A stretch of 62,958 bases of DNA, filler included, from Porpidia crustulata (lineage: Eukaryota): NCBI GenBank assembly GCA_964255105.1. It is 11 parts of 11 records of this genome, joined end to end, with 100 filler letters (N's around TTAATTAATTAA, not from the genome) between each part and the next. Parts side by side here need not be neighbours in the genome. Positions count along the whole stretch, not along the records: positions 57,342 to 62,958 come from CAXUWE010001758.1; 10 more parts are not named here. The stretch is one strand, 5' to 3'. Positions 16,285-62,958 of the stretch are shown here, one piece after another. The translations under genes were made by a program, and so were the position numbers. Position 1 is the first letter of the stretch, and every line of letters begins with the position of its first letter. The notes beneath the pieces were generated by a model, which saw only the letters and a list, made by a program, of their open reading frames with translations, did no database searches and was not told the origin of the DNA.

Positions 16285-16297
16285 AAAAAATTAAAAA
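16285..16297 (-). terminator. Pol III oligo(T) terminator of tRNA-Lys
   Basis: TTTTTAATTTTTT begins a few nt 3' of the discriminator base on the minus strand. Confidence 0.8.
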
Positions 16298-57241: not shown

Positions 57242-57570
57242 NNNNNNNNNNNNNNNNNNNNNNNNNNNNNNNNNNNNNNNNNNNNTTAATTAATTAANNN
57301 NNNNNNNNNNNNNNNNNNNNNNNNNNNNNNNNNNNNNNNNNAAACCCATATGATGATGAAAACTCGCCGATCCTACAACCCTTTTTCCCCAATATGCTTA
57401 AAAAAACCGGAAAAGGGGGATGATGTGGAGGATAACTTTTTCCCTGAACCGACATCGTCTGAACAATCTCCTCGATACCCAATTGAACACCGAAAGAAAT
57501 CAGATTTTGAAGAAGAGTTGGTACTGATGAGAAAAGGTTCTTCCGCTGGGAAACATGGACACGGGTCGAT

Positions 57571-58581
57571 CTACTTTCTCGCATAGCCACCGGATCCCAT
57601 GGTCAGTTCCTGCAGCAATTCGGCCTTGGTTTTCCAGCATTCCAGCTGGAGTTTGAGGGTGTCGCGTTCTTTCTCCGTGGTCGCCAATGCTCGTTCTAGT
57701 TCGTCGATGCGATCGAGGCGTTTTTGGCGATATTTCCGGGCTGAGATTGAGTTGCGCTCGCGTCGGGATGCTTTGCTGGTTGGATCATAGGTTCGAAGTT
57801 TGCCGAAGCCGAGGTGGGGAACTTCGCTTGGAATCTTCATTTGGTGGTAGTTGTTGGGGTGTTGATCATGTGCAGTCGGGTATAATGGTCTTTGGGAGTT
57901 CTGGTCTTTACTGGATTTAGGCCCTGGCGCAGCAGGTTTTATGGTATTCTCAGGACCGCAAGGGGGGTTGGTCGTCGATGGGGTAATCGTCTCTCGGCTC
58001 CAGGTCGGTGGATAAACATCATGTGCTCTCTTTGGCGTGGAGCTAATTTCAGATAATTTGGCTGGCTCAGAAGACGTATTTGAGCACATAGGGGCTATTA
58101 AATCGGAAGGACTATAATTCAATGATGGCCATGGCATGGATTCGTCCTCCAAGCTGGGAAATGGAGTAAGAGACTCGGTATTTCTAGCCTCTAATAGACA
58201 GTCATAACGCGATATTGTGGGCAGTTGTTGTGGCGGAGTGACATTAAATGGGGTAGTAGTTGAAGACGATCCTGTACTCATATACGAAAGGGGTATGGGC
58301 ACGCTCTGAGGAAAACTTTGGGATAAGAAAGACGGAGAAGGAACCGTAACGGACGATGAAATTTCTTCAAAACCACCGCAAAAATCAAGAGACGGCCATA
58401 TTTGATTTAGAGTCGGGTCCGCCGGATTTGAGGAGAAGCCGTTGAAGATATCATCTTGCTGCACGAAACCTGGAGAGCAGTGGTCTTCATGGTGGTCTTT
58501 CTGAGATACTGTATTGTCGTGGTCTAAAGAAGATAATGTAAGTTGTTGATGGGCAGACAGAGTATTGAATGTAGGTGACAG
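57571..58581 (-). CDS. bZIP transcription factor, JlbA/IDI-4-like; start uncertain (possibly non-AUG)
   Basis: C-terminal bZIP RRERNSISARKYRQKRLDRIDELERAL...ERDTLKLQL. The frame is open well upstream of the first in-frame ATG. Confidence 0.8.
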   Translation of the reverse strand: MSPTFNTLSAHQQLTLSSLDHDNTVSQKDHHEDHCSPGFVQQDDIFNGFSSNPADPTLNQIWPSLDFCGGFEEISSSVTVPSPSFLSQSFPQSVPIPLSYMSTGSSSTTTPFNVTPPQQLPTISRYDCLLEARNTESLTPFPSLEDESMPWPSLNYSPSDLIAPMCSNTSSEPAKLSEISSTPKRAHDVYPPTWSRETITPSTTNPPCGPENTIKPAAPGPKSSKDQNSQRPLYPTAHDQHPNNYHQMKIPSEVPHLGFGKLRTYDPTSKASRRERNSISARKYRQKRLDRIDELERALATTEKERDTLKLQLECWKTKAELLQELTMGSGGYARK

Positions 58582-58725
58582 ACATGACTGAATGACGATT
58601 GGCCCTAGATCAGGGCCGTTTTACAGTTTCTACAACGTTGGAAATATTCGAAAGGAAGACCTGATGAAGGAAAATGTAGGTAGGAATTTTTGACGATCAA
58701 ATACTCGGACCCCCTTAGCGAGAGG

Positions 58726-58732
58726 TGAGTCA
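58726..58732. promoter_or_regulatory. TGAGTCA Gcn4/CpcA (AP-1-type) element upstream of the bZIP gene; second copy at 59196-59202
   Basis: Two perfect TGAGTCA motifs lie 5' of a JlbA/IDI-4-like gene, a family known to respond to amino-acid starvation. Confidence 0.45.
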
Positions 58733-58760
58733 CAGTCCAGGTCAATAACCGAGCGCTTGT

Positions 58761-58843
58761 TCCCACCCCCCAACGGTCCGCCATACCTAAGGTTAGGGTT
58801 ATATCGACCATTTTTGATTGAGGCGGACCGTTGAGGGGTGGGA
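58761..58843. repeat. Short palindromic dispersed repeat / mini-MITE, family 2
   Basis: TCCCACCCCCCAACGGTCCGCC ... GGCGGACCGTTGAGGGGTGGGA; homologous to 26171-26253. Confidence 0.75.
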
Positions 58844-59407
58844 CTCATCGATAACAGATAGAAGCAATATCAGAGAATGTATGAAACATCCAGTCGACTC
58901 ACTCGCTTTTCTAATTCATGTGATAGGCATTCGAACACTAACTCTTGAAGCTACTGTCAGAGCATCATAACATTCCAAAAAAATATACACATGCACGGCT
59001 AGTTGAATGTTGTTATTCTCACCCTTGATTCGTCCACCATCGCAGCTGTGTGACTATGTCGTGCTGGCGAATTACTGCATGTTGATAAAGCGCGTCGGAT
59101 GCTGTCGGCTAGCCTCGAATCCGTCGTCCTTTGTAACTCTTTGCTTTTTGCCTTGCGCCTTGTTGCTGCCTCCTGCCAAGCATGCTGCCGGTGGATGAGT
59201 CACAGCATCTATGTTATGCCTGACCAAGGAGCGGTAAGAAGAAGATCATTAATGACAAAGGTAAACCGTCACGGATTGGCCTACTCAGGATGTCAACCTA
59301 CGCAGACATCAGAACTGCCCATTTAGCCATCATTGGTTAGTGTCGATGTGCCTCGAGTCTAGTGCCGCACTAGCGTCTCGACATAGTAGAGACTGGGTTC
59401 TTCTAGG

Positions 59408-59640
59408 CACGCGGGTGAAAAAAACTGATAGTTCAGAAGTTCCACCCGCCCTGAGGAACTTCATCAAATTTACAAGTAAATCTGATTCAAATTTGTCAAA
59501 ACAACGGTTTTAATAAAGCACGACTTGTTATTTATCGAGAATTTGATAATTTATTTCATTATTGAAGCGTTGTGTGTAATATCTAAATTTGGTGAAGTTT
59601 CTCGGGGCGGGTGGAACCTCAGCTTTTTTTCACCCGCGTG
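59408..59640. mobile_element. MITE with CACGCG termini, long imperfect TIRs and 5-bp TSD CTAGG
   Basis: ctagg|CACGCGGGTGAAAAAAA...TTTTTTTCACCCGCGTG|ctagg. The inner arms TTCCACCCGCCCTGAGGAACTTCATCAAATTTA are also inverted. Confidence 0.9.
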
Positions 59641-60056
59641 CTAGGTAAACGGTGATAGACCAACGTCATGCTTGGCACGCTAATTCCCCACAAACGTGCC
59701 TCGGTCCCAGACGAACAAAAGGTGATGGGCAGCTTGACAGGCAGGTTGACTGGCACACCGGGTGGAAATGTTGAGGAATATGAACCGGCAGATTCAGTGA
59801 CATATGTGCTTTATAATATTCAACAACGCCCGACTTGCTGACTGCAGCGAGGCTGAGATGCAGGCAGAATCGTCGCTGCTTTGGCGTTCTTGCCCACAAG
59901 AATTGCTCATTGAAGGAGGCTGAGCCTCGAGCTAAATCACAATTCTTTATCGGGCGCCCTGCCTTGTATAATTATATAGAGTGCACGGATAGCAGGTCTG
60001 AAGCATCAATTTTCACCCTCGTAACCTCACGACAGTAGGTATTCAGTGTCACGAGC

Positions 60057-61787
60057 ATGGCCTCACCAGTATCACCAGGCGAGGTAATCGCACTTGCGAA
60101 GTTTGCTTACCGTCTCTGGAAGTCATGCAAAGCTGCGAAAGGCGAGTTCGACAATATAGCAATGGAAGTTTCCACAACGAACACATTAGTCCAACTCGTT
60201 CATTGCGATCTTGAAGATCCCGAATCGATCATGAACCTTGTTGACAATAAAGAGAAGACCATACGGAAGCAATTAGGCATTCATATCCGCAACTGCAAAA
60301 ATGCGCTGACGGATGTTGAAAACCTGCTAGAGCGTTATAACAACATGTCTGTCCTGGACAAAGCAGCATGGATTCTGTGGGGGCACACGGAAGTTGCCGG
60401 ACTGAAAGCCAACCTTTCATCCTTTACTACCCAGCTAGATAGCTGGATAGCCAGATTGACTCTCAAAGCGGTTGGCTTGGTTAATCGCAATGTTGTGAGT
60501 GGCATCGGACGTATCGAGCAGGAGCTTGAGAAAAACAATGGCAATGACAGAGCCGCAGTGGCAGAAATTATGCGTGATATGAAAAAGTCTGGCGCTTCGC
60601 ATGAGCGATCGAACAGGTACTCGGCGATCATCAGCAGCTATGCCAAGGAGGTATCGAGCTCAGAGAGCTTTAAGAAGACGCAGCGGGCTCGTACGCCTGA
60701 TCCGCCTCGAGGGCGCCATGATACAAACACGCTGGAGGTTCCGAAGGGGCATAACCGAGCTCAGTCCGCGGATACTTTGAAACCCGGTAATGGCTCTACT
60801 GGTAGAAGAAGGGCATCTATTGGCGACCCCGCGCAGAAGAAACCAAAGTATCGCCTTGAATGTTGGCTTATTCAGATCAAGTCGGGTCAGGCTTTGTTTG
60901 TCACGTTTCAGTTGTCGGAGAAGGAGCAACAGATTCGTGGCCAGTGGAAGCTAGAAGAAATGGCGAGCCAGTTCAAGTCGTCCCGGACCCCACATACGTT
61001 AGAAGATGACCACGACCTTGTTCAGTGGGTAGTTAAGGACAGGAAAAAGCACGAACATGATAATGACTACACTTGGTGTCCGCATGCTGCCAAAATAGAG
61101 CGCAAAGGGTCGCTGTCCTTAGGCTTGGGCGTTGAAGAGCAGGCGATGGTAATTATCAAACGACAACGGACGGCTAAAGCGCAGCTAAAATTCGACGAGG
61201 AGCAAGCGATTGCTGCTGCAAAGAGAAAAGCCGAACAGGAAAAGGCGCAGAAGGAGAAACTCCAACGGGAAGCTGCAAAGCGAAAAAAAGATGAAGCTGC
61301 GGCGGAAGCAAAGAAAAAGGAAAGAGAAAAGCGAAAAAAAGACGAAGCCAAGGCGAAAGCGAAGAAAGAGGAAAAAGAAAAGCGAAACAAATTGGAGGAA
61401 GAAAACACAAAGCTGAAGGCGGCCGTTGAAAAGCTCGAGAAGGAGAAACAGTCAAATTTAGGCCCGAACACAGCGCAGGAAAGTAGACAGGGCGAGGTCA
61501 ATGTGCAAACAGAGAAGCGTTCTAAATCCAAGGAACCAAAGTTAAAAAAGGAGGCCGATGCTGAAAAGCCGGCGAAGAAGGAGAATCAACCAAGGCCAGA
61601 ACAGGGCAAGGCACAAGAGTTGGAAAGAGTCAAGGCAAATGGCAAAGGCCAGCGGGTGATTCCGGACATCACCAATGCCAAATCCGAAAATTCCGAAAGG
61701 TCCAACGGCGCTGGCGCCGGCAAGAAACCAACGAATAAGAAGGATGATCGTAATCCAATGAAAGACAAAGATGTGAACAAGATGTGA
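60057..61787 (+). CDS. Hypothetical protein with SesA/HeLo-like (fungal STAND N-terminal) helical domain and Lys/Glu-rich coiled-coil tail
   Basis: 576-aa intronless ORF. The N-terminus SPGEVIALAKFAYRLWKSCKAAKGEFDNIAMEV...CKNALTDVENLLERY is typical of fungal N-terminal helical effector domains. No P-loop is seen. Confidence 0.65.
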   Translation: MASPVSPGEVIALAKFAYRLWKSCKAAKGEFDNIAMEVSTTNTLVQLVHCDLEDPESIMNLVDNKEKTIRKQLGIHIRNCKNALTDVENLLERYNNMSVLDKAAWILWGHTEVAGLKANLSSFTTQLDSWIARLTLKAVGLVNRNVVSGIGRIEQELEKNNGNDRAAVAEIMRDMKKSGASHERSNRYSAIISSYAKEVSSSESFKKTQRARTPDPPRGRHDTNTLEVPKGHNRAQSADTLKPGNGSTGRRRASIGDPAQKKPKYRLECWLIQIKSGQALFVTFQLSEKEQQIRGQWKLEEMASQFKSSRTPHTLEDDHDLVQWVVKDRKKHEHDNDYTWCPHAAKIERKGSLSLGLGVEEQAMVIIKRQRTAKAQLKFDEEQAIAAAKRKAEQEKAQKEKLQREAAKRKKDEAAAEAKKKEREKRKKDEAKAKAKKEEKEKRNKLEEENTKLKAAVEKLEKEKQSNLGPNTAQESRQGEVNVQTEKRSKSKEPKLKKEADAEKPAKKENQPRPEQGKAQELERVKANGKGQRVIPDITNAKSENSERSNGAGAGKKPTNKKDDRNPMKDKDVNKM

Positions 61788-61879
61788 GGCAGTTGTTGAA
61801 TGCGGTGTACTTCGAGGACCTGTGGAAGGACTTTGAGACGTTTGAAGAACAGAGACTTCACATTTCACAGATTTCCATT

Positions 61880-61966
61880 ACGATTTAGCCGAAGCTTTCT
61901 CTAAAGTCGGTTAGTCATACTATCCTTTGTTTGAAAGCACAAGCTTACCAACTGAGCTAATACCGC
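61880..61966 (-). pseudogene. Degenerate tRNA (Phe-like) 5' half containing a 48-nt spliceosomal-type intron at position 18/19
   Basis: GCGGTATTAGCTCAGTTG|GTAAGC...ATGACTAAC...TTTAG|AGAAAGCTTCGGCTAAA. The 5' exon resembles eukaryotic tRNA-Phe (GCGGxTTTAGCTCAGTTG-GGAGAGC). No intact T arm is found downstream. Confidence 0.6.
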
Positions 61967-62958
61967 AGAGGTCGTTGAAAAAGACTTGATTTGAACCTAC
62001 ATCCCAAGCTTTCCCAATGCGCTTCAAACCCAAAACTTACATCGGGACAAGCGCAAAGCTCTGCCAATTTTATCACGAGTTCGAACGCTTGCTTAAGATT
62101 ATTCAAGGGCGTAAAGATCCAGTACTTCCTAAGTCCTCCCCGAGCAAATCCCTCAACCTACGGAAGTGCTAAACACTCCCTCGACGAGTGCTCCGCCCAC
62201 AAACCATCCCAACTTCGAGACACGGGCAGTGCTCCCCTAATGAAACTCTCCCCACGAGCCAGCTTCCGCACAGCTCCTTCACTCGCACGACGATAGGGAA
62301 AACAAAGTCGTGCACAGAGGGGTGAATTCCGCGTTTTAATTCCGCCCAGTCTCACCGTGTAAAGGCAGCAAAGAGCGATGAATCGGTCAAAATAGATATA
62401 CAAGCGACCACTCCGACATTTCCCCTGGAAATCACCGTAGGACTTTGGAAAAAAATAACAAAGCAATCGAATTCCCCCCTTCACATGTAAGATTTATGCG
62501 CCGGTTTTCTAATTTCCATTTCCCAATTCAAAAGCCACACCATCGAGACCAAGAGATATACCACCCACATCAATCAACCATCTCAAACCTAGGGCTTTAC
62601 GAAAGTGTGACATCCACCTCGATCCTCTCCAATCGCCGGCTTTGCTAGTCTCAACATAAATTAAACCCACTCTCATGGTTATCGTGCAAGACAACAGGGA
62701 TAACAGATGGCGTGCCAGGTGCGGGACCAGAAATTATGGCAGAGACAATGCAGAACGCGAGAGATGGGATGCTGCGACTTCGAGCTAGGGTCCGTGTATC
62801 TACCATATTTACCTCCAGCCCTTGCATCTTTCTCAAAAAGATTTGCATGTTCCGGTACGTGCCGTCGATATCGCTTTACATTTACGTCAATCTGAGCTTG
62901 CCCTACCTATTTCCTTTCTACCCCAACAAATCATCCAACCCGTTCCCCTGCCCCTGCC

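Follow-up and report, generated by a model that had tools for sequence, protein, structure and literature searches.

A minus-strand locus in the last fragment (57342-62958) of the analysed window (62,958 bases, joined through N's from 11 fragments of about 5.6 kb each) combines the likeness of a transfer RNA (tRNA) 5' end with that of a spliceosomal intron. A tRNA-like 18-mer, GCGGTATTAGCTCAGTTG (61949..61966), corresponds to the acceptor 5' strand, U8/A9, the 5' strand of the D stem and the D loop as far as G18, and contains an A box. It is followed directly by a 48-nucleotide (nt) intron-like segment of spliceosomal type (61901..61948). The locus lacks a B box, an anticodon arm and a nearby terminator and is no tRNA gene. 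It is a dead stub rather than a second split tRNA gene, and alone it cannot show recurrence. Elsewhere in the window, a tRNA-Lys(CTT) gene, here called L1, is a genuine tRNA gene, interrupted by two inserts of spliceosomal type. The reading we favour from the sequence, at somewhat below an even chance, is that the stub is the truncated, non-functional remnant of an intron-bearing tRNA gene of the kind of L1. The initial annotation had placed the 18-mer, the 48-nt segment and two downstream motifs, AGAAAGC and ACCGCA, correctly on the minus strand, and its opinion that the locus is probably a pseudogene holds, the locus being dead as a tRNA gene.

The A-box 12-mer TAGCTCAGTTGG is exact and occurs once in the window, where 0.20 matches are expected with one mismatch allowed. 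For scoring, a 27-nt 5' profile was built from 40 of 46 distinct neighbour tRNAs in metagenome loci, all unrelated to the stub; the other six were dropped for odd characters, for their length or for the lack of a T at position 8. With this profile the stub ranks first in the window (61965-61944, 8.4 bits, nhmmer E 0.39). None of 60 shuffled windows reached 8.4 bits, the best score per window having a mean of 4.9 and a maximum of 7.4. The stub's likeness to tRNA is real but modest, and is limited to its first 22-25 nt.

The 19-mer made of the 18-mer and the next G was scanned in a very large metagenome collection and found at 45 loci, in 37 of which it is the exact start of a tRNA called by ARAGORN. 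At one further locus (L015) the called tRNA begins one base before the 19-mer, and at seven the match coincides with no tRNA call. The 37 tRNAs comprise Asp (12), Arg (9), Gly (9), His (5), Lys (1) and one of undetermined isotype. None is Phe, and the description of the stub as Phe-like therefore has no basis. No orthologous locus was present among the 45, the matches to the window spanning only 19-25 nt. Two of the 45, on AT-rich, eukaryote-like contigs (L018, 391-520; L036, 401-530), hold tRNA-like genes that begin with the stub's 19-mer and have a B box, a matching 3' acceptor strand and extra inserts, one apparently by the T loop; ARAGORN reported no gene on either contig with its intron option on or off. 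At four others (L004, L019, L022 and L040, positions 401-460) CAGAGTG comes after the 19-mer, and the sequence beyond it has no likeness to a tRNA. This stretch is the same in three contigs from one sample series, with few differences in L022, and is another isolated look-alike of a tRNA 5' end.

The 48-nt segment starts with a GTAAGC donor (61948-61943) and contains the branch sequence TGACTAAC (61917-61910), the branch A of which lies 10 nt ahead of the 3' AG. It ends in TTTAG, the acceptor TAG occupying 61903-61901, and is free of any run of four or more T. A GTRNGY donor, CTRAY 3-20 nt before YAG and a length of about 47-90 nt were taken as the marks of an intron of this genome, and the segment has all three; its length and signals also resemble those of candidate introns flanking long open reading frames (ORFs) in the window. 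As an intron-like segment it matches the intron type of this genome. Of the strict motif GTAAGY..RCTAAC..YAG the window has two instances, one of them this segment, against an expectation of 0.29 (100 dinucleotide shuffles) or 0.66 (300 mononucleotide shuffles). A looser intron motif is not enriched (26 seen, 29.2 expected). The chance that a GTAAGY donor is followed by the strict continuation is 1.1%; for a relaxed CTRAY..YAG continuation it is 9.6%. The pairing of an A-box site with a GT-branch-AG intron, a coincidence whose likelihood the initial annotation had raised, is modestly beyond chance by these shuffles (0 of 60 for the tRNA end; two strict motifs versus 0.29-0.66).

L1 (16299..16489, minus strand) provides the comparison. 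It carries two GT-AG inserts besides a 9-nt canonical intron: insert 1 (16480-16427; 54 nt, GTAAGT..CAG) follows U8, and insert 2 (16416-16365; 52 nt, GTAGGC..TCTAAC..TAG) follows G18. ARAGORN calls tRNA-Lys(ctt) only once both inserts are excised, and their removal raises the tRNA profile score from 19.0 to 33.7 bits. The gene has an exact B box, the only match to GGTTCRANYCC in the window, and runs of T5 and T6 begin directly after it, at 16297; both inserts lack runs of four or more T. L1 is missed by unaided ARAGORN and by Rfam. On the raw 62,958-base window ARAGORN reported 0 tRNA genes, and no Rfam family exceeded its gathering score anywhere in the window. A whole-window Rfam scan by E-value likewise missed the real tRNA at L1, of which only the T arm was matched, to transfer-messenger RNA. 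Removal of its inserts makes L1 an intact structural-RNA gene; the stub locus does not respond in this way.

The junction at the stub, after nucleotide 18 in a linear count, is that of L1 insert 2 (16417|16416). The initial annotation had emphasized this shared insertion point, which stands formally, but the match is partly automatic. A tRNA with GGTAGAGC offers a donor-like GT at exactly this place, and this applies to L1 insert 2 as well. Both inserts open with a look-alike of the D arm, GTAGGCT in L1 insert 2 and GTAAGCT at the stub, each within the top 0.5% of 1000 random continuations. Because the tRNA would supply its own 5' splice site, the site after G18 may nevertheless be a favoured one.

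A short similarity is seen at the two ends of the stub's segment: GTAAGCTT (61941-61948, the segment start) and GAAAGCTT (61892-61899, just past its end) are identical in register at 7 of 8 positions. There is a parallel at L1, where insert 2 begins with GTAGGC and GTAGAGC stands directly after the insert. These pairs hint at an origin resembling target-site duplication, though alignments show no longer duplication. An origin of the segment by tandem duplication was considered and rejected, as no tandem repeat is present and the alignment to downstream sequence is not significant (equalled in 496 of 2000 shuffles).

Under the favoured reading, an ancestral tRNA gene would have gained a short GT-AG intron with a branch site in its D loop, after G18. 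The tRNA's own G18|G19-U-A-G-A-G-C, being similar to a 5' splice site, would have made this a favoured place. A truncation would later have spared only the 5' exon with its intron and, past the intron, no more than about 7-13 nt. The anticodon arm, the T arm with its B box, the 3' acceptor strand and the RNA polymerase III (Pol III) terminator would all have been lost, and no tRNA would be made. We infer both that the stub descends from a real tRNA gene and that the 48 nt were once spliced.

Much of what lies at and beyond the junction weighs against such a remnant. GTAAGC can be read equally well as G19-U20-A21 plus the 3' strand of the D stem with a 1-nt deletion. A contiguous, intron-free tRNA-like stretch accordingly covers 61942..61966 on the minus strand, namely positions 1-21 and then AGC(T) as a D-stem 3' strand that is one base short. 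The 5' profile match (61965-61944) extends 5 nt into the segment, the unspliced continuation after the 18-mer is matched in score by no more than 0.5% of 1000 random ones, and four real tRNA-Gly metagenome loci are identical over 22 nt (61967-61946), through GGTA. This mimicry of the D loop weakens the positional coincidence with L1 as evidence. Removal of the segment lowers the score from 8.4 to 5.2 bits with the 5' profile and from 7.4 to 6.4 with the full-length profile, and destroys the G18-G19 pair. AGAAAGC (61894..61900), which directly follows the segment and would start exon 2, had been described as a decayed D-arm strand. With the 5' profile its 5.2 bits are equalled by 18.1% of 1000 random continuations, which does not confirm that description, while on the small full-length profile it falls in the top 1.4%. 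The stub as a whole attains only 7.3 bits with the full-length profile (24 tRNAs), and at least 8 of 60 shuffled windows score higher.

The rest of a tRNA is equally hard to find. ARAGORN called 0 genes at the stub locus, either unspliced or with the segment removed, while the L1 positive control was found. Among 272 variants with single or double GT..AG excisions none yielded a tRNA, even with ARAGORN -ps95 and -ps90. The earlier proposal that the segment is the intron of a second tRNA locus is not supported by these results or by the lowered scores. With two mismatches allowed, the B box has no minus-strand match below 61966 in fragment 57342-62958, and the first downstream run of four or more T is at 61690, 210 nt past the segment. 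ACCGCA (61801..61806, minus strand), a possible acceptor 3' strand with discriminator, pairs with GCGGU in the minimum free energy (MFE) fold, a weak pairing that could be chance. Six of seven positions pair between ACACCGC (61808-61802) and GCGGTAT, at a distance of 166 nt from G1 (118 without the segment) and with no T arm preceding it. The acceptor end previously seen in ACCGCA is a complement of 5-6 bp at 160 nt, and simple arithmetic gives any one 5-mer an expectation of about 0.14 in 150 nt. The Rfam tRNA model has no match in 61500-62300 at E up to 10, but this silence is uninformative because the scan misses L1 too.

Nor do copies or relatives of the locus help the favoured reading. 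The segment has no significant similarity to either L1 insert: the local alignment of the stub locus with L1 scores 20, which is matched by 48 of 500 shuffles, and the comparison of the segment with insert 2 gives 0.125, attained by 7.5% of background intron pairs. The window has no second copy of the locus, and the contigs of one DNA run contain, at 80% likeness or above, a single matching contig that is identical and possibly the window's own source. No close parent or paralog was thus seen in the run contigs, in a search whose sensitivity for matches of about 70 nt is not established. A perfect 18-mer and perfect splice signals beside an unrecognizable 3' part also require that the truncation be recent. 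A tRNA-derived short interspersed element (SINE) was rejected as a source, since a B box is lacking and neither the window nor the run contigs contain a second copy.

The same observations can be set against other explanations. The locus could be a plain tRNA relic of which about 25 nt are left, a 1-nt deletion of GGTAGAGC-type sequence mimicking the GTAAGC donor and the branch motif and the acceptor 40 nt downstream being coincidental or at most a cryptic site. This agrees with the more tRNA-like score of the unspliced reading (8.4 versus 5.2 bits), with a 5' profile match that enters the segment by 5 nt, with the four real tRNA genes identical over 22 nt and with the absence of tRNA-like sequence past the segment. 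In 9 of the 37 real tRNAs with the 19-mer the continuation is TAGAG, and 9.6% of chance donors obtain a relaxed intron-like continuation. We nevertheless regard a plain relic as unlikely. The strict quality of the signals (RCTAAC, 10 nt from branch to AG, 48 nt in all), found after just 1.1% of chance donors, counts against it; a specific 1-nt deletion is needed as well, and in L1 a true insert occupies the same junction. The strict signals count likewise against pure coincidence, according to which the locus is neither tRNA remnant nor intron and drew attention through a look-elsewhere effect once the tRNA-Lys locus had been seen. Three observations agree with coincidence: at least 8 of 60 shuffles surpass the 7.3 bits of the full-length profile, 7 of the 45 metagenome loci have the 19-mer without a tRNA call, and Rfam gives no tRNA match, a weak test that L1 fails too. 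Coincidence must, however, account jointly for a top 5' match that 0 of 60 shuffles reach, for a strict motif of which the window has only two and for the L1 junction, and we give it little credence.

We also judge it improbable that the segment is an ordinary intron in a non-coding RNA made from the minus strand, such as an antisense RNA over the 3' end of a neighbouring protein gene of 576 amino acids (aa), with the A box present by chance. A consensus donor after ...TTG automatically completes a D-loop-like GGTA, the signals are of high quality and the length is typical. The locus lies 93 nt past the stop of this convergent gene, a common spot for antisense transcripts, and the 176-nt region (61970-61795) folds somewhat better than its shuffles (z -2.21, 5 of 200). 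Joined to random sequence, the 18-mer scores only 4.08 +/- 1.23 bits, near the best of shuffled windows (4.9). Yet no frame crosses the junction, so that the perfect signals would need to be maintained by selection in an RNA that codes for no protein. The exact A-box core right upstream of the donor counts against this explanation as well: an exact 11-mer core before a given donor is expected at about 2e-5 per intron, with about 100 variants allowed (arithmetic). The failure of the downstream sequence to continue a tRNA, for its part, counts against the intron-bearing remnant. The balance tips towards that remnant because of L1 in the same 62 kb and because of the introns in the ribosomal DNA (rDNA) of lichen fungi, and how far it tips depends on the frequency of split tRNA genes in the genome.

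The 576-aa gene is an ORF on the plus strand (60057..61787), its stop 93 nt from the tRNA-like locus, which is therefore antisense and in its 3' flank. This stop is genuine, since the ...KDKDVNKM C-terminus is common to five close homologs, and an extension of the gene across the locus was rejected as all five stop at the same place. The minus-strand frames over the putative junction have 36, 27 and 2 codons and no Met. Because no open frame crosses the junction, an intron of a coding messenger RNA (mRNA) is excluded, and with it the objection, foreseen in the initial annotation, that the intron might belong to a coding minus-strand mRNA. ORFs in 61957-62493 have no Pfam match, and there is no recognizable gene in 61788-62958. 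The 576-aa protein is without a block of about 57 aa with CCCH zinc fingers that is present in all five of its closest homologs (P0122-P0126), four of which are flagged for PF14608. Since its N-terminal region and exact C-terminus are kept, this looks like an in-frame deletion, and the gene is possibly decaying. In the spacer between this gene and a basic leucine zipper (bZIP) gene lies a long plus-strand hairpin (59421-59626). It matches MIR2606 at 42.4 bits (E 0.0048), far under the gathering score of 139.7, and is probably an inverted repeat, not a microRNA.

Upstream of the stub, and so on the wrong side for its tRNA, the minus strand carries a B-box-like GGTTCAAATCA followed by T5 (61987..61997), 21 nt from the 18-mer. 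It has 2 mismatches to the B-box consensus, and such matches occur at chance frequency (51 seen, 53.9 expected). A weak profile match to tRNA positions 31-61 (62018-61988, minus strand) overlaps it and is not significant at 4.2 bits. The region 61976-62018 may hold the tail end of a further decayed tRNA, or the resemblance may be chance; a permuted or tandem tRNA relic that uses GGTTCAAATCA was rejected, the matches not being significant. In the fold of 61970-61795, judged from the MFE structure only, both junctions of the 48-nt segment are within continuous helices and no bulge-helix-bulge motif is formed.

Pfam matches in the window include a HET domain, the Pol III subunit RPC2, a mitochondrial RNA polymerase and a bZIP factor. 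Together with short GT..CTRAY..YAG introns, they mark a filamentous ascomycete. The nearest named relatives of the RPC2 protein are lichen-forming Lecanoromycetes (82-83% identity), namely Hypocenomyce, Pleopsidium, Loxospora, Umbilicaria, Lasallia and Xylographa. Judged by its sequence, the genome looks like that of a lichen-type fungus of this class.

In eukaryotic nuclear tRNA genes, introns nearly always sit at position 37/38 and are excised by the tRNA endonuclease. Literature searches, at the level of listed titles and abstracts, turned up no paper on a spliceosomal intron in a tRNA gene, in fungi or otherwise. We suggest, tentatively and with less confidence than we attach to the remnant itself, that introns of spliceosomal type repeatedly settle in the Pol III tRNA genes of this ascomycete, at the D-loop site G18|G19. 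There, GGUAGAGC would be a ready-made 5' splice site, L1 a live case and the stub a second, independent, truncated one. If so, the spliceosomal introns of lichen rDNA would extend to tRNA genes, and tRNA maturation in these fungi could depend on the spliceosome. This would raise the questions of how Pol III transcripts meet the spliceosome, of whether standard annotation misses split tRNA genes, as ARAGORN and Rfam miss L1, and of how a new intron originates where the sequence already looks like a splice site. In that case the stub would count as evidence for recurrence and for a preference of site, weak when taken alone. In practice it serves mainly to point to the tRNA-Lys locus L1 and to a search for split tRNA genes genome-wide.

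Among the closest known parallels is that with nuclear rDNA of lichen-forming ascomycetes, for which ectopic spliceosomal introns were reportedly described in 2000. For such introns, a later paper gives a length of 57 bp and relates that yeast spliceosomes excised an rDNA intron of this kind from RNA polymerase I (Pol I) transcripts (Armaleo & Chiou, 2021, PMC8527467); the word tRNA has 0 occurrences in this text. The segment at the stub resembles these introns in being short, of the GT-AG and branch-site type, and in what would be a structural-RNA gene outside RNA polymerase II transcription, and the fungal group is that of the window's nearest named relatives. It differs in that the rDNA hosts are functional Pol I genes for ribosomal RNA, whereas here the host would be a Pol III tRNA gene. 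Removal of the segment from the stub restores nothing; in the window only L1 behaves as the rDNA genes do.

Fungal small nuclear RNA (snRNA) genes are also said to contain mRNA-type introns, in work dated from 1989 to 1996: the U6 gene of fission yeast, which Pol III transcribes, and the U6, U2, U1 and U5 genes of Rhodotorula hasegawae. They are explained by the presence of the snRNA in the catalytic centre of the spliceosome, which permits reverse splicing, and a tRNA has no such proximity. The likeness to the stub would lie in a spliceosomal intron within a small non-coding RNA gene, including, for U6, a Pol III transcript; those genes are functional and the stub locus is not.

Non-canonical introns and disrupted tRNA genes are reported from red and green algae, nucleomorphs and archaea, and are of the bulge-helix-bulge type (PMC3978253). 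The insert at the stub is similar in its position in the D-loop region, outside 37/38. Introns of that type are excised by the tRNA splicing endonuclease at a bulge-helix-bulge motif, with the two junctions in 3-nt bulges on either side of a 4-bp helix, and lack a GT..branch..AG arrangement, whereas the signals here are spliceosomal. With tRNA pseudogenes, tRNA fragments and the heads of SINEs, finally, the stub shares an isolated, A-box-bearing 5' end without tRNA function, and it differs from ordinary tRNA relics in the intron-type signal set that flanks it.

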